NCBI GenBank assembly: GCA_000091205.1
Contig: AP006501.2
Reading direction: 5' to 3' (one strand)
Source of the DNA: Cyanidioschyzon merolae
Taxonomy: Eukaryota
Length of the DNA stretch: 64,000 nt
Positions 53,207-64,000 of this stretch are shown piece after piece. The position numbers and the translations under genes were made by a program. The notes under the pieces are model-generated. The model saw only the letters and a program-made list of their open reading frames with translations, had not been told where the DNA came from and did no database searches. Every line of letters begins with the position of its first letter. The first letter of the stretch is position 1.

Positions 53207-53719
53207 TCACGACTCTTCCAACGTCTGGCGAACAAGGCTTCGAACCCGCCGTCGGTACGCATCGGGTTGTTCGCGCCACTCCTTAGCAGCATCTATATTC
53301 GCGGGTGATTCGTCATTCGGGGACGCGAGCATGCTGATCACAGATAGTAGAATCGACTCAACAGTATGAACAGGTGACCAACGTTCGCCGGCCATTTCAT
53401 ACCCGTGTGGGTCGTCACCCGGAGGATGCAGAATGCTGATGCAAACTTCGCCGTTTCGGTAAACGTTCGGATGCCAGGGTATTGGCGGCAAAAACCTCAT
53501 TCTTGGCGGCAACATAGGGTACTCCGGTGGAAACGTAAGCTCCGCTCGAAACAGGCCCCCCTCGAAGGGCGTGTCTGGAGGGCCCAGCACCGTAACAGCC
53601 CAACGGAAGGGATCGTCCTCCGAAACGAGTCCCGCGCTGAAACCGTCCACGGAGCTCTTATTCAAGTCCCGAAGTTGACGGGTGAGAAGCAGCGCCGCAC
53701 GCGAAGAGTTCGCGCTCAT
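53207..53719 (-). CDS. UBC7: ubiquitin-conjugating enzyme E2, Ubc7/UBE2G-like (acidic-loop insertion)
   Basis: 'HPNVYRNGEVCISILHPPGDDPHGYEMAGERWSPVHTVESILLSVISMLASPNDESPAN' carries the HPN, the catalytic Cys and the UBE2G-type loop. The track ORF extends to 53854 through a dispersed repeat; the ATG 'MSANSS' is at 53717-53719. Confidence 0.85.
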   Translation of the reverse strand: MSANSSRAALLLTRQLRDLNKSSVDGFSAGLVSEDDPFRWAVTVLGPPDTPFEGGLFRAELTFPPEYPMLPPRMRFLPPIPWHPNVYRNGEVCISILHPPGDDPHGYEMAGERWSPVHTVESILLSVISMLASPNDESPANIDAAKEWREQPDAYRRRVRSLVRQTLEES

Positions 53720-53743
53720 TGTCTCCGCTGCTAGCGAACGCCT

Positions 53744-53832
53744 TTCAAAAAAAAGGTTGCTCCCGGCAGTGTACAGTAGCGGCGAGTGACCCGCCCTAGA
53801 CGAGACGTCTCCAACTGAGGTGCAGACGCCTG
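53744..53832. repeat. left copy of a ~90-bp direct repeat (partner at 57289-57381)
   Basis: The core 'gtRcaSgtagYggcgagtgacccgccctaRacRWgacgtctccaactgaSgtgcagacgcY' is shared with 57321-57381. Upstream there is additional similarity after an A-rich tract. Overall identity is about 85%. Confidence 0.7.
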
Positions 53833-53941
53833 TCGGGCTTTCTCGACCGGCCACTTACTACTCTTTTCCATTCTTGTCTCATATAATTCCACTTTGAGCG
53901 ATTGTCCAACGAAGTTCTCTCGTGTCTAAGCTGTAGGTCTA

Positions 53942-56290
53942 TTACCCGTCACCGCGCATTTTTCTCATATTGATTGCGGAGTTAAAGTCTCGGTTCACGA
54001 AATCCATTCGTTTCTTGCCATCACTGGATGTACTTACTACGGCAAGTTGTCCGAGAACTTTCGCCCTCCTTTCCATTTGCTCTTCTGTCAGCGCTCCGTA
54101 CTTTGCTATTTCCTCAGGGCTCCTCTGGCACTTTTCCATCTTCACTCTCTGAAGTGTACAACCCAGCTCATGGTGAGTATAGGACGTTCGAAACTCCTCT
54201 ACCCGTATCATAACGAAACGACGTGCGCACTCCTTGTACACCCTCGTCGTTGGAGCTAGCGTAGTTCCTTTTTGGGTCTTCCAGCGCCCTGCTCGATACG
54301 CTACTACGAGCCTCTGACTGTCATCCTCCATCAAGGCACTCAGCTGATTGAAAAAATTCGCGACCGCCCGCTGCTTCCCACAATACAAATTCATTCGCAA
54401 ACGAGCCCACCGGGGCTTGGTATACTCTTTCCACAGCGTATCCCAGTGCGCCATGCGAACTTCCATGACTTTCCGAAAAGCTTCAAAGTCCGCTCCTCGG
54501 CAAGTCACCTAGCTCCAAGCTTCCAGGTGATCTTTCATTCCTGAAATCCATGTCTCGATTTTCTTCCTCGCATTCATGATTCCCGAGTCTTGATAGTATC
54601 TCCCTCTCGAGAACCTCAAAAGACGCATGTCTTTCTGACGTAAGTTACCATCAGTACCATCTTCCGCACGCTTCAATGCTGCGATGGTAATGATATTCGT
54701 ATTCCCAGGGTCCGCGCCAACGACAAAGTCGTTATCTAGCACTCTCTGGGTCGCAGGGCCCACCTTCTTGTCTTCTTCATGCTTCACCGCGTCAACGACA
54801 AGGTCTTTATCCTGCATTTCCTGCGTCGTAGAATCCGCCTTCTTCGCATCTTCATCCTTCGCCGCGTCAACGATAAAGTCGTTATCCTCCACCGCCTGCG
54901 TCGCAGGACCCGCCTCTTGGTTTTCTTCATGCTCCTCTGCGTCAACGGCAAGCTCGTTATCCTCCACCTCCTGCGTCGCAGGACCAGCCTCCAGCTCATC
55001 TTCATCGTTCGTCACGCCAACGACAAGGTCGTTATAATGCACCTCATGCATCGCAGGATCCGCCTCCTACTTTTCTTCAGCCCTCGTTCCGGGCGCAGCC
55101 GATGGAGGGACTGGACGATCTTTCTTCAACCGTCGATAGTGTACGCACACGGTTACTCCATCGGTTTCGATCATCCCAGTGAGCTACTTTTGCTTGCTCG
55201 TTTTGAGACGTTTGAAACCGAAGATATTCTTCCAGTACGTCTCCCGGTTTTCGCCGGTGAAGTGCTCCCTACTAATATTGAACTCCGCACTGATCTCCTT
55301 TATGATGCCGTAAAGGACCGCGGAGTCGATCGTCATAAAATGAGCCTTGATGTTGCACAACGGAACGACATTGAAGCACTCACCCAATAGGAAAGCCTTC
55401 CGTCTCTCCCATTCTTCATTTTTCCTCACTCAGCTTCATCTCCGCTTTGCGTTCGAGCTCTCGGCCCAGAAACACAAAATACCGCCGGAAGATGCGATAG
55501 TATCTTTCCTTATCTTTTTTCAACTCTGATATCTTGTCTGTTGGATTCACCAGCCCCAAGACTGCACGATGCTCTTGTATAGCCGCACGGGTTACAGATA
55601 CTTCATTCGTGCTCCTTTTTTGACGTCTTCTTGTCGACGAATTCGACGTAATCTTCATGCTGGCGATCTTTCGTGATGCCACTGATGATCGACCATATCC
55701 CCTTGCGAGAGATGCCCGGGTTGAGTGCAAACGCGGTGCGTATCATGAAACATGCGAGGTTCTCTGTCAAATGGTTCTTCAGGTTCGTGATGTACTTCAT
55801 TGCCCCATATGTGTAAATATGCGAGTCACCCCTGCGCCGAGCACCCTCGAAGCGGAATACCGCGAAGTTTTCGTGGAGAGTATGCATTAGCACATTTTCC
55901 CTCCACGTTCCCGCTGTACCATGCATCAGGTATCGAAAAGACGTCTTGTCGAAGAACTCGCCCGGAATCTCGACCGTTTCCATCTGCGTCATTTGTTCGT
56001 ACATCTCCCTCGCCAAATGCATCAGTCCGGAAGACGCCTTGGCAATACTCTTGGAGTACGAGTCGACATGCTTTCTGATAGCGTCTCGCAACTTTTCCGT
56101 ATAGGGATGCTTGATATGTCCAAGAAGAGAGGTTTTCACCACTATCTCGTGGTACAGTTGTCGTTCTTGCAGCCTTCGACGTAGGGCCTCCCATTTTGCT
56201 TCTTTTTCTTTTGCTCTTCGTCGGGACTCGGCACTGTATTTGTTTTTCTGGCAGCCGGCGACAATGGCGCTTCAGGATCGTGGACTTGCT
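53942..56290 (-). pseudogene. decayed TnpB/Fanzor-like RuvC nuclease gene (transposon-associated), interrupted by frameshifts and in-frame stops
   Basis: The remnants lie in order on the minus strand. RuvC-I is 'VVGADPGNTNIITIAA' (54509..55051). RuvC-II is 'FVMIRVEEFRTSYT' and RuvC-III is 'DFVNRDFNSAINMRKM' (53942..54508), with a degenerate H/C cluster between them. An in-frame TAG at 54509-54511 separates the two ORFs. Further TAGs at 55067-55069 and 55184-55186 fall in the same frame. Upstream pieces sit in two other frames (55603..56142, and a short ATG ORF starting ~56290). Whether the N-terminal region is also TnpB-like is not established. Confidence 0.4.
54716..55090. repeat. 75-bp tandem repeat x5 encoding acidic 25-aa repeats inside the TnpB-like pseudogene
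   Basis: Units start at 54716, 54791, 54866, 54941 and 55016, an exact 75-bp period. They encode '...GPATQ.VEDN.F.VDA..DED.KK...' on the minus strand. Confidence 0.75.
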
Positions 56291-57766: not shown

Positions 57767-58842
57767 ATGCAAGCTCTTTTCGTTTTTGTCCCGTTGTACC
57801 AGGAAAGACACATTGTTCGCGCGCGCGCTGCAACTCGAGCACGGTTCCCGCTACGTACCGCACGTGACGGGTGCTTCGCAGACGGACAATGCCACCACTG
57901 TCAGCATCCGCTTCCCTTGTTAGTGCAGCCCTCGCCTGTAGCACGCCGGCACCACGCTCTGCATCTTCGTATGGGCCCGAAACAGTCGCAGGTCGCCGTG
58001 ATCACTGGCGCGTCCTCTAGAGTCGGTCTGTATTCCGCTCGCGCTCTGATCAGCAAGGGCAACTGGCACATCGTCATGGCATGTCGTGACGTCGACCGGG
58101 CGGAACGCGCAGCAAACAGCGTGAACCTTCCAAAGGACGCCTATACAGTGCTGCATTGTGATCTGGCTGATTTCGCCTCTGTGTTGAAGTTTGCGAGAGA
58201 GCTATCGAGTGTGGCGCGCGTGGATCACCTGGATGCCCTGATCTGCAATGCCGCACTCTGGCATCCGCGGGACAAGAAACCGCTTCTCACGGTGGACGGC
58301 ATCGAGAAGGCCATACAGGTTTGCTATCTGAGCCATTTGCTTATATGTCGGAGGCTATTGCCGAAGCTGAAAGTATCGCGCGGGCGCATTGTGTTTCTGA
58401 CGACTCAGACCCATTCGCCGAATTCGTTGCCGGGAAAGATTCCCCCGCAGGCTCGTCTCGGTGACTTGTCTAGTCTAGCCGCGGGGCTTGGTCCGCGGAC
58501 GACGGGCATGGTGGACAGTGGCCCGTTTGAGCCCACAAAAGCCTACAAAGACGCCAAAGCCGCGAACGTTTTATCAATGAAGGCGCTCAGTGATCGATAC
58601 GGCCGCGACGGGGTGACCTCTGTGGCGATTTTCCGGGATGTGTCGCCGACAGCAACCTCTTCCGCGAAAAGCGTGGCTGGTTCCGATACGTATTCTTCCC
58701 GATTCTTCAGAAGTATATCACTCCGCAATACGTTCCGAATGACGAGGCCGGCCGCCGTGTAGCCGAAGTGGCGACCCAGGGACAGTTCCCGGACTCGGGC
58801 TCGTATTATCAGTGGCGTGGCAAATATACGTATGGGGGATAG
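57767..58842 (+). CDS. POR: light-dependent NADPH:protochlorophyllide oxidoreductase (POR), plastid-targeted; the reading frame is interrupted by an apparent 1-nt deletion near 58631-58636
   Basis: After an ~80-aa presequence the protein aligns along its whole length to plant POR: 'VAVITGASSRVGLYSARALISKGNWHIVMACRDVDRAERAANSVNLPKDAYTVLHCDLA ... LICNAA ... GKIPPQARLGDLSSLAAG ... MVDSGPFEPTKAYKDAKAANVLSMKALSDRY'. After 'VTSVAIF' the similarity continues only in the -1 frame: 'PGCVADSNLFREKRGWFRYVFFPILQKYITPQYVPNDEAGRRVAEVATQ ... SGSYYQW', ending at TAG 58840-58842. The track ORF stops at 58762 in the wrong frame. Confidence 0.85.
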
Positions 58843-59121
58843 AAGACCGAACCGCAGGTTATTGAACCAACGTAAGAAATCGACAAGGCAGATCAGCTTT
58901 ACGAACTGAGTCTTGATCTGATCGACCAGGCGTTACGGAGGCGAGGCCTAAAGTCGAATTACTTGGCCCCTGTCTAAGGTTTGTTAGTGATGAAAATGAG
59001 ATGCGGGCTTCGGAGCGCAGACCGCTGCGTCAAGGACGGATGTGGGAGCAACAGCGTAACGATGAGACGACACCCCACTGTCACAATCGGATAGCGGACG
59101 GATGGGTGGGCACACCTCCTG

Positions 59122-60743
59122 ATGTGGAGAACCAAAATTGCTTCGCAAGTCAGAAAGCGTACTGCAGTAGTGATTAATATAGCTATAGCTATGACCTACT
59201 TCGCATCGAATGCGCCAGAGACTGCCAACTGTGGTCGTTCAAGAGGGCAGAGCGCGTTTATTTGGGTAATTTTGTGCGGTGAAGAATACGGCAATAGAAG
59301 CGCACTTGCAGACGTTTGAACGATCTGTGGGTATTCGATATCAAACTGGGTCAACGGGCGTGGATTAATGGAAGCTCGGTAGTGAATACTCTAGCAGTAT
59401 ATGGGGCATTGAGCGAGTCAGGCCCGAATAGTGTACCAAGTACTCGCTATGGATCAGCTTTCTGGGACACTAGTAGGACTGATCCGATCGTATTTGTTGG
59501 AAATGGATACATAAACACGAGCGGCAGTGACTTTCTCAATGATGTCTTTGCATTAAAGAAAACATTCCCTACTCCAACACCAAAAACTTCGCGGACACCT
59601 ACCCCCATCTGCTCCAATGAGCTCTGCGGATCTCCAGGACAGTGCATCAACCAGGACGCTTGCGAGCAAGTCGGGTGCTGCTTTAACTCCCAGACGAACG
59701 CTTGCACCCTGAAGAGCGTCTCAGCGGCGTGCAGCGCTGTTGAAGTGACGCAGCGCGTCACCTGCGGCTGGAGCTACATCTACCCCGACGAGTGCACTGC
59801 GATACCGGGATGCTGCTGGCAGCCCACAGCGAACGGCATCCTGGCACCCTGGTGCTACTACGACATCAACCATGCACCGCAGGCTTCCGTAGCGCTGCAG
59901 GAGATGCAGGCACCGGTTCCCGTCTGCGCATCACCGGGAGCGCAGCGCCAGCCATGCGGCGACGCGGGTATCAACCAGTTTACCTGCTATGCCCAGGGCT
60001 GCTGCTACGACTCGCAGGCGCAGAACCAGTGGGTGCAGAACGGCAAGCAGCAGAGCGACTTTGCGTCGAACCCGTACTGCTTCCAGCCTGAGAAGACGTG
60101 CGCGGTGGGCGAGTTTGAGCGCCAGCCGTGAAATAACGTGGTGAATCAGAACCAGCAGCGGAGCAACAATAACATCAACAGTAGCCAGTTTGTGCGTCTG
60201 CTGAACACGGTCCTTTACGGAGAGCAGCACGGGACGCCGCGCACGAGCTACGCGTCGCAGCAGTGTCTGGAGGCTGGTTGCTGCCTGGGGATCGGCAACG
60301 AGTGCTTCCAGCCGGTTACCGAGTATGTTTGCCAGACCTATGGGTATGCGTCGAACTCGCTGAGCGGCACGACCGGCAAAGTGTCGAACTCGACGTATAT
60401 TCCATGCGGCTCCGAGTGCTGCAACGCCGAGACGCAGAACTGCACGTAAAACCCGTTCAGTAACAACAATAACCAGCAACTGCAGCAACAGCAGGTGCTG
60501 TTGCCGTCATTCTGTGTGTGCAAGGACCCTACAGTTCAGTCCGGGACGTACCTGATCGCTTCGGATAACCTTGTGCACAAGGTGCGTTGCTGCCGCTCTG
60601 GCGAGGAGTGCATCAACAACAAGTGTATGATGATTAGTCCTACGCCGTCTCCGAGTGCCGTTATTGCGACTGCAACTGCGTCTGCAAGTGCGTTGGTATT
60701 GGTGTCGACCTCGACGCGTGCCTCAGCAAGTACTTCAGTATGA
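59122..60743 (+). pseudogene. disrupted secreted Kelch-fragment / TP-linker / triple P-type (trefoil-like) Cys-module gene; paralogue of the N-terminal part of 61427..63616
   Basis: Frame 1 (59122-59319) encodes a Kelch-like 'GQSAFIWVILCGEEYGN'. A frameshift follows. Frame 0 from 59316 gives 'NDLWVFDI ... YGSAFWDTSRTDPIVFVGNGY ... LNDVFAL' (Kelch-like), then 'TPTPKTSRTPTP', then three modules with CG ... GCC[FWY] ... (P)[WY]C[FY] spacing ('TCGWSYIYPDECTAIPGCCWQP ... APWCYY', 'PCGDAGINQFTCYAQGCCYDS ... NPYCFQP'). The same frame continues through an in-frame TGA (60129-60131) and TAA (60447-60449) into further Cys-rich and N/Q-rich segments and a hydrophobic tail. The downstream segments have no ATG. 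Confidence 0.45.
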
Positions 60744-61426
60744 ACCACTGCGTAGACGGCAGCTATCTGTACGGCCCCGCGCGCGCGAACACAGAACTAA
60801 AACATGTTTCAGTTATTGGTATATTGATTCCATGAGGAACGTGGTTGTACAATATAGTTCGCACGTGCATGCACGCAACCTTCCAGTCCGGGTTGGGGGC
60901 CCACAATCCAATGTTGAGGGTATCTGGACACCAAACTTAGCCCTAGACTGGACATCGACAAATATGCAGATGGCCTGCAGAAAGAGGGAGTTTTTCGTAC
61001 TGCGTCATAGCGGGCCGGGTCCGAATGTGCGACGGGCACGCCATTAGCCTTTTTCGATATTTGGACTCTGCAAGGGTATTTGAAACACGACTGCGGCGTA
61101 GACTGCTACTTTGTATTGCCATTACGAGAGCGCCTTCATGAAACTCGGTAGCAGACGCTGCAAAATATCTTTGTCCATTTATGATAGAAATGTCCTGTTG
61201 CGGGAGCGCCGTGCGCAGATCTGCGTCATTCAGACGGCGGTGCTTGACGCGCTCCCGTGCTGCTTACCTCAGAATACTTCGTGGAGGCTCGTAGTGGTAC
61301 GGACGGAGACAGCAGTGACAACAGTACCAGCAGCTGGAGGCTCTCCTATCCCTGTAGATAGTAAGCAACTCGTTTCTCTGGGAGGCGTTTACTTTTGACT
61401 GGTGCAGAACCCCTTTCGTATCCTAT

Positions 61427-63616
61427 ATGCGAAAAAGGTATTTTTCTATTGTGAGACTCCTGGTTATAGTATTGGTTGTGTCGGGAACACACACAGTTCG
61501 TGGAGTTTTGTCCGCAGAGAATACTGTATTATGGACCTGGATCGGTGGTAGTAGCTCTAACGGCAGTTCAGGTAGCTACGGTGTTCAGGGTGTGCCGAAC
61601 ACCAGCAACGTGCCTCCGGCGCGGTACGGTGCGGCCTTCTGGACCGGCGCTGACGGGGTGCTCTGGTTGTTTGGTGGTGGCAGCGACTTGAGAGACGTCT
61701 TCGGTGATCTCTGGAACTACAATCTAAGCACGTTCTCTTGGACCTGGGTTGGAGGCTCTGCATCCCTCAACTCTGGAGGGGTATACGGCTCCCTCGGAGT
61801 TCCCAACAAGAGCAACTATCCGCCTTCGAGGACGGAATCCGCTGCTTGGAGTGACAGCAACGGAAACCTTTGGTTATATGGAGGCTGGAATTTGAACTTG
61901 GGCTATAGTGATATGTGGATGTATAATGTATCGTCGGGCGAGTGGACATGGGAGCAGGGATCCAACAAGACCAATGTTTCCCCGACATATGGTCCTCTTG
62001 GGAACTCGTCTGCAAGCAACACGCCTGGCGCTCGTTTCCAACCCGCGACCTGGGTTGGCCTAGATGACCAGTTTTATCTCTTTGGTGGATTTAGTCCTAG
62101 TGGTACGTATTACGGTGACTTGTGGCAGTACAACACAGTGACCAACGAATGGAGCTGGATAGGTGGCACTCAACAGCTGTCTCCCTCTGGAAGCTATGGT
62201 GCGTTTCGCCAGGCATCGCCGAACAGTTATCCCGCTGGACGTTTCGGAGCCACCTCGTGGCGAGACCTTGATGGGAACTTTTGGCTATATGGCGGTTTGG
62301 GAGAGATTGACGCAGTTGGCAGCTTTCTCAATGATTTATGGCTGTACAATATCAGCTCCAAAGAATGGACTTGGATGTCTGGAGATGACAGTGTTGGCTC
62401 AAATGGGGCAGTATACGGCGAGAAAGGAGTGCCGTCATCGAGCAACACTCCGGGGTACAGATCCGGTTCCTCTGGATTTGTAGACTCGTCAAACACTCTG
62501 TATCTCTTCGGTGGTGTTTCACGCGGCGTCTGCAACGACCTGTGGACGTTCAATATAACGAGTCTTGAATGGACTTGGGTAGACGGTGACGATACAACGA
62601 ATGGAGCCTATAGCTACGGCGAGGTTAACAAGACAAGCAATACAACGCTTCCACCTCCGCGATACGATGCAGTTCTTTGGAATACCGATCAAAACGACCC
62701 GGTCCTATTCGGAGGCCTCGGTAGCTCAGGTAGCTATAACGACCTCTTCACATTATACATCGCAGCACCGACGCCTACACCGACCGCAACACCGACTCCG
62801 ACGGCCTCACCGACGCCCTCCGTTACTGCAGCACGGTCGGCAACGACAAATGTGACGCAGACCGCTGTAGGCGAAGGCTCTGCGGTCTGCTTCCCCGCGG
62901 ATGCCTCGGTGCTGATCGATGGTCTGGGCAACCATCTGCAGATAAGCGAGCTTCGATCAGGTATGGCCGTGATGGGCGTCAATGGGCGCGGGCAACTGGT
63001 CGAAGATAGTGTACTAGGATGGTTGCATAACGAGCCCGGCGCTACTGCAGAGATTCTGGCGATCAAGACGCTTTCCGGAAAGCAGCTGCGTCTGACGAGA
63101 CAGCATCTGGTATATCGAGTGATCGAACACTTTAGAGACTTTGATAGTATGATGACCACTTTCTCGTGTATTTCACAGAAGCAGCAGCAGCAGCATCAGA
63201 AGCACATACGTCGGAGCCTTGAGTTGGGTACCACCGCCGTTGAGGCAGTTTTCGCGGAAGATATCCGCGTTGGCGACGCTCTGCTGGACGTTGCTGCGCA
63301 CCTGCCGGACCCCGTGGTGGCAATCGAGACAGTAGTTACGCACAATGGTCTCTATGCGCCGTTGACTCGCTCAGGGCGCCTTGTGGTCGACGGCGTTCTC
63401 GTGAGCTGCTACGGGACGTACGCATCGCATGCCGTGGCCCATGCAGTGTTGTGGCCTGCGCGGGTCGATGCTCTGCGCAAGGTATGGACATCAGGGCTCG
63501 GCACAGAGGGTATTGTGGGTATCATGCCATACGCAGAAAGGCTCTATCACATTTGGACGAGTGCAGCACGTGTTTTAACGGAGGCTCGCGTAAGTGTTGT
63601 AGTTGCAGCCTGCTGA
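61427..63616 (+). CDS. secreted Kelch-repeat beta-propeller protein with C-terminal Hint (Hedgehog/intein-type autoprocessing) domain (Hog-type protein)
   Basis: The ATG is verified at 61427, followed by the signal peptide 'MRKRYFSIVRLLVIVLVVSGTHTVRG'. Six Kelch-like blades follow ('PPARYGAAFWTGADGVLWLFGG', 'DLWNYN ... WTW', and so on). A Thr/Pro linker 'APTPTPTATPTPTASPTPS' comes next. The Hint module begins at 'CFPADASVLIDGLGNHLQISELRSGMAVMGV' and runs through '...TRQHLVY ... HNGLYAPLTRSGRLVVDGVLVSCYGTYASHAVAH'. The conserved Cys-Phe-Pro start and TxxH are present. Confidence 0.8.
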   Translation: MRKRYFSIVRLLVIVLVVSGTHTVRGVLSAENTVLWTWIGGSSSNGSSGSYGVQGVPNTSNVPPARYGAAFWTGADGVLWLFGGGSDLRDVFGDLWNYNLSTFSWTWVGGSASLNSGGVYGSLGVPNKSNYPPSRTESAAWSDSNGNLWLYGGWNLNLGYSDMWMYNVSSGEWTWEQGSNKTNVSPTYGPLGNSSASNTPGARFQPATWVGLDDQFYLFGGFSPSGTYYGDLWQYNTVTNEWSWIGGTQQLSPSGSYGAFRQASPNSYPAGRFGATSWRDLDGNFWLYGGLGEIDAVGSFLNDLWLYNISSKEWTWMSGDDSVGSNGAVYGEKGVPSSSNTPGYRSGSSGFVDSSNTLYLFGGVSRGVCNDLWTFNITSLEWTWVDGDDTTNGAYSYGEVNKTSNTTLPPPRYDAVLWNTDQNDPVLFGGLGSSGSYNDLFTLYIAAPTPTPTATPTPTASPTPSVTAARSATTNVTQTAVGEGSAVCFPADASVLIDGLGNHLQISELRSGMAVMGVNGRGQLVEDSVLGWLHNEPGATAEILAIKTLSGKQLRLTRQHLVYRVIEHFRDFDSMMTTFSCISQKQQQQHQKHIRRSLELGTTAVEAVFAEDIRVGDALLDVAAHLPDPVVAIETVVTHNGLYAPLTRSGRLVVDGVLVSCYGTYASHAVAHAVLWPARVDALRKVWTSGLGTEGIVGIMPYAERLYHIWTSAARVLTEARVSVVVAAC

Positions 63617-64000
63617 GCTGGCAATCTGCCCTGCAGGACAGGGGCGAACAGTACCGATGGTACCACTCTAGGTGCTGCTTTTTCTGCCATAGGATAGTGT
63701 TTGAGCAATGATGGTAAAACGCGCTCTATCGCGAAAAAGCATCCCGCAGCATATTGCCAGGCATTTTTGATATGTGATGGTACCAGATCCACTTATATAA
63801 ACGAGCGGAGTTGCAAAGAAGTATTCGTGTGTGTGAAATCGAGGCACGCCGCGAAATACAGTTTTATGTACCAAGATGTACTGTAGCGCCAATACTTGCG
63901 GAGAGCAATAGCAGCAGCTGCCGGTTACATGAGACTGAGTGAGCAGAGGTTTGCATGCATCTATGCTTCGAAATAGTATTGTGGCTGGGGAGTTGTGGAG

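Follow-up and report, generated by a model that had tools for sequence, protein, structure and literature searches.

Judged from its sequence, the reading frame at positions 59122-60743 (+) of the window, a stretch of 64,000 nt from the right subtelomere of chromosome 19 of Cyanidioschyzon merolae 10D, is with a probability of about 90% a non-functional pseudogene, namely the T (trefoil factor) copy of the P-T-H block ('PH element') at chromosome end 19R. It encodes in succession a Kelch remnant, a Thr/Pro linker, P-type trefoil modules, more Cys-rich modules and a Ser/Thr/Ala tail (Table 1). Seven neighbouring ORFs are exact matches to the 10D proteins CMS489C to CMS50x of this 1,282,939-bp chromosome. 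No telomere repeat was found within the window, so the chromosome end must lie beyond base 64000. The gene order POR-like short-chain dehydrogenase (SDR), trefoil locus and Kelch-Hint gene (P-T-H) also occurs in the copies L001, L004, L005, L006 and L011; P, T and H move together, as a subtelomeric block of which several chromosome ends carry a copy.

PH elements have been described before (Nozaki 2007; P, POR; T, trefoil factor; H, hedgehog), with 19R among the ends named. There are eight of them in 10D (6L, 7R, 8L, 8R, 11L, 14R, 18R and 19R), and the T gene at 8R is rated 'intact'. A subtelomeric family of Kelch+trefoil (K+T) and Kelch+Hint genes in Cyanidiales was described by Cho 2023, whose Supplementary Dataset 5 contains the entry 'CHROMOSOME 19 E 1269748-1282930 <P,T>,H', in which '<>' denotes a pseudogenized-gene. 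The gene family, the mixing of Kelch, trefoil and Hint domains and the pseudogene status of the 19R T gene are thus already published. As far as the literature that we found goes, this is the first description of the lesions themselves and of their direction (Cys to TGA and Tyr to TAA), and likewise of the frameshift common to the copies, the Kelch truncation and the mosaic structure.

Table 1. Features of the trefoil locus and its two neighbours, with positions in the window.
Feature	Position	Strand	Basis or detail
P gene, POR-like short-chain dehydrogenase	57767..58977	+	Pfam adh_short
Upstream ORF	59122..59319	+	65 codons from ATG 59122, frame 1 mod 3, TGA 59317-59319
Signal-peptide-like stretch MWRTKIASQVRKRTAVVINIAIAMTYFASNA, then Kelch blade remnant	opens 59122..59319; Kelch from ~59191	+	translation
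Frameshift GACGTTTGAAC	59310..59320 (~59316)	+	1 base short compared with an intact Kelch blade (...ALADV / LNDLWVFD...)
Remnant of last Kelch blade(s), frame 0 mod 3	59316..59561	+	35% identity to Kelch-Hint protein residues 368-443
Thr/Pro linker TFPTPTPKTSRTPTP	59562..59606	+	translation
Four P-type (trefoil)-like modules	59607..60311	+	PF00088, PDB matches
Trefoil-like module 1 (short)	59607-59705	+	
Trefoil-like module 2 (canonical)	59730-59861	+	CSAVEVTQRVTCGWSYIYPDECTAIPGCCWQPTANGILAPWCYY
Trefoil-like module 3 (long third loop)	59925-60086	+	
Trefoil-like module 4 (Asn/Gln insertion)	60099-60311	+	
Cys-rich module 5	60330..60449	+	C-x24-C-x3-CC-x6-C; ends in TAA 60447-60449
Asn/Gln-rich linker	60450-60509	+	translation
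Cys-rich module 6	60510-60626	+	translation
Ser/Thr/Ala/Val low-complexity tail and terminal TGA	60627..60743	+	translation
H gene of the block, intact Kelch-Hint ('hedgehog-like', K+H), CMS508C	61427..63616	+	Pfam Kelch + Hint

The Kelch-like blades that the sequence-only reading had proposed were recovered by alignment to the last blades of the neighbouring Kelch-Hint protein (BLASTP, 35% identity, E = 2e-13), and only about two blades of the domain survive. Given that the remnant is only 35% identical to the adjacent gene, the locus is not a recent tandem duplicate. Of the 'pseudogenised tandem duplicate' suggested earlier, the pseudogene part therefore stands by virtue of the stops and independent lesions described below, while the tandem duplication does not. 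Both the Kelch-Hint gene and the Cho 2023 family have a Thr/Pro linker of this type; in the copy L009 it is expanded into a Pro/Thr repeat that precedes the same modules and is at least 330 aa long. The membership criterion of this family is a Kelch domain joined to trefoil modules via a Thr/Pro/Ala-rich linker, and the locus has this arrangement in its Kelch remnant, TFPTPTPKTSRTPTP and modules. The core of the sequence-only reading, in which trefoil modules replace the Hint domain behind the same type of linker, is therefore supported; the domain shuffling on a Kelch scaffold that it drew from this is real as Kelch with trefoil versus Kelch with Hint, but is not a new record.

A search with the Pfam Trefoil profile PF00088, one of the checks suggested with that reading, scored 70.1 bits for the module region and 48 bits for the full-length conceptual protein, the cut-off being 21. 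The profile matches three stretches, the best of which spans profile positions 1-42 of 43. In the PDB, the sequence matches TFF2 (porcine spasmolytic polypeptide), TFF3, TFF1 and maltase-glucoamylase (MGAM), the last through its P-type domain. The assignment to P-type domains was thus upheld, although the modules number four and not three. Against the pattern C-x9/10-C-x9-C-x4-CC-x10-C, with Arg before Cys2, Gly after Cys2 and Trp/Phe before Cys6, module 2 CSAVEVTQRVTCGWSYIYPDECTAIPGCCWQPTANGILAPWCYY fits the six-Cys spacing and aligns residue by residue with TFF2, TFF3 and TFF1; in modules 1, 3 and 4, which are variants, a loop is shortened or expanded. From the match, the three-loop disulfide fold (Cys 1-5, 2-4, 3-6) would be predicted for the encoded modules. 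Two further Cys-rich modules (5 and 6) with an Asn/Gln-rich linker follow, as had been anticipated. The region 60450..60626 is conserved in the homologues P0001-P0006, and a conserved Cys of these relatives (KQCGTY) is Ser in the window (VQSGTY). The tail, previously called hydrophobic, is actually of Ser/Thr/Ala/Val low complexity and differs in length among relatives.

Translation placed the frameshift near 59316, the TGA at 60129 and the TAA at 60447 where they had been noticed from the sequence. Past ~59316 the frame moves by one base, to the frame starting at 59316 (0 mod 3), which contains in-frame TGA 60129-60131 and TAA 60447-60449 ahead of the final TGA 60741-60743; repairing the frameshift in silico yields a continuous Kelch blade in the alignment. 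This frameshift is common to all six syntenic copies (window, L001, L004, L005, L006 and L011), and the alignments contain no indel there. The TGA replaces the conserved second Cys of module 4, where relatives read FERQPC, and the TAA a conserved Tyr just past the last Cys of module 5, where relatives read NCTYNPF. Only the TAA thus falls at the start of a linker, the Asn/Gln-rich one, as had been claimed for both stops. Comparison with related loci, likewise suggested as a check, revealed Cys and Tyr at the two positions in P0001-P0006, the codons TGC and TAC in L001, L003, L004 and L006, and TGA and TAA in L005. The latter is an independent environmental metagenome contig, and the recurrence of both stops in it indicates that they are real mutations. 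Each of the six syntenic copies has additional lesions of its own, such as the stops and indels of L004 and L006 within the Kelch remnant 59316..59561, and P0001, the best-preserved copy, has 455 codons without a Met.

The P gene is also pseudogenized in 10D, by a 1-nt deletion in the T-run 58629-58632 (TTTTT in L001 and L004) and by the stops TAG 58840-58842 and TAA 58873-58875, at which L001 has GAG and TAC; L004 and L005 carry intact P genes with ORFs of 408-419 aa. The H gene is a 729-aa ORF. Five C. merolae paralogues annotated as 'similar to hedgehog protein' share 87-92% identity with its product, and the gene list of Cho 2023 includes the gene as Chr19_CMS508CT-KH.

Substitution patterns were assessed in PH-type copies, the window among them, and in intact 'type B' copies; from 10D, this set contains the PH element at 19R out of the eight, the annotated intact T and K+T genes CMH282C, CMC005C, CMC186C and CMR001C lying outside it. 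Within the Kelch remnant, substitutions among copies are spread evenly over first, second and third codon positions (21, 21 and 22; 0.27 per site), and the remnant is evolving neutrally by this measure. Lineage-private substitutions are likewise even by codon position in PH-type copies, at 29, 29 and 40, and number 5, 6 and 20 in the type B copies; dN/dS is 0.08 between type B copies and 0.2-0.5 in pairwise comparisons among PH-type copies, not 1. The trefoil part has an excess of third-position changes (35, 36 and 83) despite the shared frameshift, a combination that calls for gene conversion with functional donors or for some time of T-only function after the frameshift had arisen. The four-gamete test was failed by 1339/3916 pairs of informative sites. 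L001 and L011 are identical to the type B copy L003 over 60124-60253, and L005 is 100% identical to the window over 60247-60737 at a background of about 92%. This mosaic trefoil part suggests gene conversion with intact paralogues, although the environmental contigs are metagenome assemblies, in which chimeras between co-occurring strains or paralogues could account for part of the mosaic. Both the dN/dS of 0.2-0.5 and the third-position excess are probably due to gene conversion, which would explain why the trefoil part appears more 'coding-like' than the Kelch remnant.

Among the alternatives to a pseudogene, the one that survives best, though it is itself quite improbable, is that a T-only gene still works at this locus or did so until recently. 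An unannotated intron of 293 nt (GT 59266-AG 59558) would join the ORF starting at ATG 59122 to the linker and skip the dead Kelch remnant and the frameshift, so that the 10D copy would owe its loss to just the two later nonsense mutations. The join of 59265 to 59559 is indeed in frame, the first ORF has the n-h-c layout of a signal peptide ending in SNA|PE, and a T-only homologue from Cyanidium caldarium consists of exactly a signal peptide, linker and trefoil modules. However, chance alone should supply an in-frame GT...AG pair within 300 bases. The 5' site reads GTAATT, visual inspection revealed no clear branch-site motif, and Cho 2023 lists only 27 introns for the whole of C. merolae 10D. 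Moreover, a TAG directly follows the ATG of the upstream ORF in L001, L004 and L011, including a copy with a fully open trefoil frame. The contrast between the neutral skipped region and the third-position excess of the trefoil part would fit such an intron, but is equally well explained by gene conversion. A shorter intron of 46 nt (59266-59311) that would bypass the frameshift leaves the frame still off by one, as checked by hand.

That the gene is intact in the organism, with the frameshift and stops being sequencing or assembly errors, as the sequence-only reading had allowed, is very improbable. The 1-base deletion in a T homopolymer of the neighbouring P gene is an error of typical kind, but both nonsense codons are carried by the independent contig L005, the frameshift at 59316 is present in six of six independent copies, and substitution errors making exactly four stops in two adjacent genes are implausible. 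In addition, the 10D reference was finished by Sanger sequencing and is said to be 100% complete, and Cho 2023 also scored P and T of 19R as pseudogenized.

Even less credible is a decoding of the stops, either of TGA as selenocysteine or of stop codons as sense. A TGA exactly where homologues have Cys is the classic Sec/Cys pattern, but no SECIS or other Rfam match was found in 58000-64000 at E <= 1, the Cys concerned is a structural disulfide partner and not a redox centre, and selenocysteine would explain neither the TAA at Tyr nor the frameshift. A variant genetic code was dropped: under the standard code the seven neighbouring ORFs equal their annotated proteins exactly, and the stops are confined to the P and T loci; other copies also bear different, unrelated stops and indels. 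Tiny introns over the stops (GT...AG of 22 nt around TGA and 15 nt around TAA) were likewise rejected, the homologues having plain Cys and Tyr codons there. Finally, separate translation of the segments between the stops as small Cys-rich proteins, already judged unlikely from the sequence, has next to no probability: each segment does contain whole Cys-rich modules, but the segments lack an ATG or signal peptide, their ORFs start only at GTG or TTG, and in the homologues one uninterrupted ORF reads through sense codons at the two stop positions.

For the pseudogene reading we propose the following history. The T copy of the PH element may first have lost most of its Kelch domain and then acquired the one-base frameshift (~59316) before the block split into the copies sampled. 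In the 10D lineage, two C-to-A changes would have converted Cys TGC to TGA (60129) and Tyr TAC to TAA (60447). The copy is presumably now drifting neutrally, with gene conversion apparently continuing between its trefoil-coding part and intact paralogues.

In organism, chromosome end (19R), P-T-H order and the Thr/Pro/Ala linker joining Kelch to trefoil or Hint, the locus agrees with the Cyanidiales K/T/H family of Nozaki 2007 and Cho 2023, from which it differs in no kind; the latter study flags the 19R copy only as pseudogenized '<T>'. The best named homologue is CDCA10G3079 of Cyanidium caldarium ('Trefoil factor', T-only, non-subtelomeric), which has 56% identity over ~75% of the conceptual protein and shares its series of modules, four of them trefoil-like and two otherwise Cys-rich. 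In contrast to the 10D locus, CDCA10G3079 is intact, has its own signal peptide, a Ser/Thr/Ala linker instead of the Kelch remnant and other neighbouring genes, and is devoid of Asn/Gln insertions and the long tail. All other matches of the word-based searches with the trefoil query were JGI representatives, these searches covering cluster representatives (90% or 50% clusters) that may hide C. merolae T and K+T proteins.

Outside the Cyanidiales, the next-best matches of an exhaustive search were cnidarian and vertebrate P-type proteins and fungal GH31. With animal TFF1, TFF2, TFF3 and the P-type domain of GH31 the locus shares the six-Cys pattern C-x9/10-C-x9-C-x4-CC-x10/12-C and the conserved Arg, Gly and Trp/Phe, and its tandem modules align with both domains of porcine TFF2. 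Unlike these, it is algal and encodes a long multi-module protein with extra Cys-rich modules, low-complexity linkers and greatly expanded loops in modules 3 and 4, but no glycosidase domain.

For the intact relatives, the most plausible picture is of secreted proteins resembling mucins, with secretion and O-glycosylation predicted from sequence. Each carries a signal peptide, a Thr/Pro/Ala linker as the probable site of O-glycosylation, and several P-type trefoil modules that would be disulfide-locked, with further Cys-rich modules; some members also possess a Kelch beta-propeller. The TFF-like genes are known to be expressed mostly in the cell-walled diploid phase and to be nickel-induced. 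A repressed subtelomeric domain, of the kind assayed through H3K27me3, has been reported for C. merolae.

Subtelomeric families of genes and pseudogenes that exchange sequence by gene conversion include the VSG genes of trypanosomes and subtelomeric families of yeast. The T copies resemble these in being subtelomeric and multi-copy, with intact and dead members and mosaic sequences, but the locus offers no evidence of programmed switching or benefit, and the mosaic may be partly an artefact of metagenome assembly. That the dead T copies of PH elements form a subtelomeric pool exchanging trefoil-module sequence with expressed K+T and T-only genes is a speculation that we consider unlikely; if true, such a pool would diversify secreted, mucin-like surface proteins of the acid-exposed diploid cell. 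A pool of this kind would fit the mosaic sites and the coding-like substitutions, which lie in a frame untranslatable in every copy.

With the family, its subtelomeric duplication and the pseudogenized status of this copy all on record, the locus matters little beyond bookkeeping. The interesting questions, namely the role of an algal trefoil protein at pH 1-2 and whether it shares ancestry with animal TFFs, belong to the intact members. The base-level description given here could nevertheless help the annotation of C. merolae chromosome ends and the study of subtelomeric gene-family turnover in a very small eukaryotic genome.

The trefoil locus at 59122-60743 belongs to a subtelomeric gene family that is already published, in which it is catalogued as a pseudogene. 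Seven complete ORFs of the window matched C. merolae 10D proteins exactly, including CMS489C, CMS497C and mitochondrial EF-Tu, and since these matches all lie on one chromosome of 1,282,939 bp, the window represents distal chromosome 19. No telomere repeat was found inside it, which places the chromosome end a few kilobases past base 64000. All 40 C. merolae chromosome ends have been sequenced and homologous subtelomeric elements described, the commonest being the 'PH element' of ends 6L, 7R, 8L, 8R, 11L, 14R, 18R and 19R; in the figure legend, P denotes NADPH:protochlorophyllide oxidoreductase, H hedgehog protein and T trefoil factor (Nozaki et al. 2007, PMC1955436). The commonest subtelomeric gene duplications of Cyanidiales combine a Kelch domain with trefoil or Hint via a Thr/Pro/Ala-rich linker, with 12-24 Kelch+trefoil and Kelch+Hint genes per species; for Cyanidioschyzon, Supplementary Dataset 5 gives 'CHROMOSOME 19 E 1269748-1282930 <P,T>,H', where '<>' means 'Pseudogenized-gene', and the gene list contains Chr19_CMS508CT-KH (Cho et al. 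2023, PMC9812998). These two records thus already cover the locus, its status as a pseudogene and the shuffling of Kelch, trefoil and Hint domains. Shuffling on a Kelch scaffold, as proposed by the sequence-only reading, is thus supported as regards trefoil in place of Hint, but it is not new.

Three-frame reading bore out the initial description of Kelch-like blades, a Thr/Pro linker, Cys modules, a frameshift, a TGA and a TAA. The Kelch-like reading (LNDLWVFDIKLGQRAW...) opens at 59316 in the frame neighbouring that of the first ORF (three-frame translation, window 59100-60800), and from there to the tail only TGA 60129-60131 and TAA 60447-60449 interrupt it. With the frameshift repaired, the Kelch-like part forms a continuous blade when compared with the last blades of the Kelch-Hint protein (35% identity, E = 2e-13). 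The Pfam Trefoil profile PF00088 matched three stretches, and the module region scored 70 bits against a curated cut-off of 21; the modules are therefore of P-type as suspected, although Cys spacing yields four instead of the three first counted. Among solved structures, porcine TFF2, human TFF3, TFF1 and the maltase-glucoamylase P-type domain are nearest in sequence. A plausible signal peptide (MWRTKIASQVRKRTAVVINIAIAMTYFASNA, followed by PE) stands at the start of the first ORF (window 59122-59265), and conservation between copies is unusually high in the bin 59200-59259 (0.08 changes per site vs 0.25-0.38 either side).

Features of the trefoil locus, its neighbours and related copies (type B positions refer to the respective contig)
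Feature	Position	Strand	Basis or remark
First ORF, 65 codons	ATG 59122 to TGA 59317-59319	+	three-frame translation of 59100-60800
Thr/Pro linker	59562-59606	+	translation; after Kelch-like part
Four trefoil-like modules	59607-59705, 59730-59861, 59925-60086, 60099-60311	+	Cys spacing
Two other Cys-rich modules	3' of the four trefoil-like modules	+	Cys spacing
Ser/Thr/Ala tail	after Cys-rich modules; closing stop TGA 60741-60743	+	translation
Kelch-Hint ORF, 729 aa, intact	61427-63616	+	CMS508C according to Cho et al. 2023
POR-like short-chain dehydrogenase gene (P)	57767-58977	+	pseudogene in 10D; three lesions
Ubiquitin-conjugating enzyme (E2) ORF	53207-53854	-	just proximal to block
Lesions of L004	2-nt deletion ~59610; TGA ~60626		also stops and indels in Kelch remnant
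Lesions of L005	2-nt deletion ~59610; extra TAG at 60111		deletion as in L004
Lesions of L006	indels ~59499 and ~59526; TAA ~59987
Lesions of L011	frameshift after module 1; late stop		also Cys-to-Tyr changes
Type B locus, L009	3-2231		long Pro/Thr/Ala repeat reaches contig edge
Type B locus, L003	2-1405		starts at contig edge inside end of Kelch blade (GHLNDAFALSETFPTPTP)

When the conceptual translation of the locus was used as query, five metagenome proteins were found at 81-87% identity, as was the 'Trefoil factor' CDCA10G3079 of Cyanidium caldarium at 56%; all six carry FERQPC and NCTYNPF at the window's two stop positions. Among the contigs encoding such matches, the order SDR, trefoil locus, Kelch-Hint is common to five environmental metagenome contigs (L001, L004, L005, L006 and L011), which are 87-93% identical to the window across several kilobases and are, together with it, termed PH-type copies here. 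Comparison with related loci, as suggested in the sequence-only reading, revealed TGC and TAC at the stop positions of the multiple alignment in L001, L004, L006 and the type B contig L003, and TGA and TAA, as in the window, in the independent environmental assembly L005. The two stops are thus single third-position C-to-A changes that exist in nature. Recurrence of both stops in L005 rules out sequencing errors, and with them the idea of a real gene ridden with assembly errors.

The one-base frameshift at ~59316 and the same shortening of the Kelch domain, to about two blades, are found in 6/6 syntenic copies, each of which is additionally damaged in its own way. Even in the least damaged copy (L001, protein P0001), the frame stays open for 455 codons but contains no Met; an upstream ATG is followed at once by TAG in L001, L004 and L011, and no in-frame ATG for the trefoil part was found among the PH-type copies (window 59316-60626 compared). 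Substitutions found in just one PH-type copy are distributed evenly across codon positions 1, 2 and 3 (sum 29, 29 and 40), and type B copies L003 and L009, the intact locus type, show 5, 6 and 20 with a dN/dS of 0.08. The main interpretation, namely a relative that is disrupted, probably a pseudogene, and equipped with trefoil modules instead of Hint, is supported.

An intron of 293 nt (GT...AG, 59266-59558) was considered, by which the signal-peptide-like first ORF would be spliced to the Thr/Pro linker. The join keeps the frame, but chance does as well, and the first ORF is interrupted in L001, where the trefoil frame is fully open, as well as in L004 and L011. Separately translated small Cys-rich proteins, judged unlikely from the beginning, are not supported, since none of the pieces has a start codon or a signal peptide. 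Selenocysteine is ruled out for the TGA, as no SECIS element was found in 58000-64000 and the TAA replaces a Tyr codon, and the exact protein matches of neighbouring genes rule out a variant genetic code.

While lesions in every copy and the published annotation (Cho et al. 2023) agree with a pseudogene, the proposed tandem duplication does not hold. A Kelch remnant just 35% identical to the Kelch-Hint protein rejects a recent duplication of that gene and marks the two as old paralogues moving together in one repeated block. The Kelch-Hint ORF itself has at least five annotated 10D paralogues at 87-92% identity. Its exact sequence was absent from the protein collection, which does contain five paralogous C. 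merolae entries named 'similar to hedgehog protein'; this copy may be missing from public annotation or be drawn there with other boundaries. Gene P has lost 1 nt from the T-run 58629-58632 and carries TAG 58840-58842 and TAA 58873-58875, all three sites being intact in relatives (GAG and TAC at the two stops in L001), and intact P ORFs of 408-419 aa occur in L004 and L005. A dead P in 10D agrees with '<P,T>' of Cho et al. 2023. All four nonsense codons of P and T represent G:C-to-T:A transversions. Further upstream, a 75-bp tandem repeat (x5, 74% matches) occupies 54712-55086 within a minus-strand ORF without Pfam match; GC and AT skew are strongly negative there, and the segment falls in the part shared with L011, whose homology to the window begins at 54285. 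E2 is also one of the genes by type that have been listed for other subtelomeric elements of C. merolae.

Type B loci have modules as in the PH-type behind a much longer Pro/Thr/Ala linker repeat (at least 330 aa in L009). Their flanks are unlike those of the PH element, homology to PH-type copies starts only at ~59595, and L009 and L003 probably represent Kelch+trefoil genes from related strains. A rearranged trefoil gene with an internal duplication junction (…GEQHGTQRT joined to TQRVPCGW…) was seen in metagenome contig L010 (1-1432), and in protein P0007, from another metagenome contig, ribosomal L39 and C2-domain sequence is fused to the C-terminal half of a trefoil protein; in both cases the rearrangement is either real or a product of chimeric assembly.

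Among PH-type copies, the Kelch remnant has changed exactly as neutral sequence (21, 21 and 22 substitutions at codon positions 1, 2 and 3; 0.27 changes per site), whereas the trefoil part shows a two-fold third-position excess and lower divergence (35, 36 and 83; 0.15 per site). Given that pairwise dN/dS is also 0.2-0.5 and not 1, this is unexpected if all copies have been dead since the shared frameshift. When window 59604-60641 was compared with L001, L003, L004, L005, L006, L009 and L011, 1339 of 3916 informative-site pairs failed the four-gamete test, so the trefoil region is strongly mosaic. Over 60124-60253, no difference separates L001 and L011 from L003, an intact type B copy; L004 has the states of L003 at 60315-60413, and L005 equals the window at 100% identity over 60247-60737 against a background of ~92%. 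This mosaic indicates gene conversion among copies or chimeric assembly, to which metagenome contigs may themselves be subject. Because homology between PH-type and type B begins only at ~59595, conversion could refresh the trefoil part and not the Kelch remnant. Functional paralogues would donate trefoil-part sequence while the Kelch remnant stays unrefreshed, and gene conversion of this kind could account for the contrast between a neutral Kelch and a coding-like trefoil part.

In C. merolae, 13 of 15 TFF-like genes have their main expression in the cell-walled diploid phase, and a role in acid protection was suggested by the authors, who state that outside Cyanidiophyceae TFFs are vertebrate-only (2026 Plant Cell paper, PMC13353863). 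The cnidarian and fungal matches of our exhaustive trefoil-profile search conflict with this statement, the best non-Cyanidiales matches (P0222-P0242) being cnidarian (Clytia, Oculina) and vertebrate P-type proteins and fungal GH31 (Piromyces). Trefoil-factor genes, e.g. CMR001C, were also induced in a nickel-stress transcriptome (PMC12112623). The overall interest of the finding is low; what is added here to the published gene family is a base-level account of the decay of one member and a hint of ongoing gene conversion.
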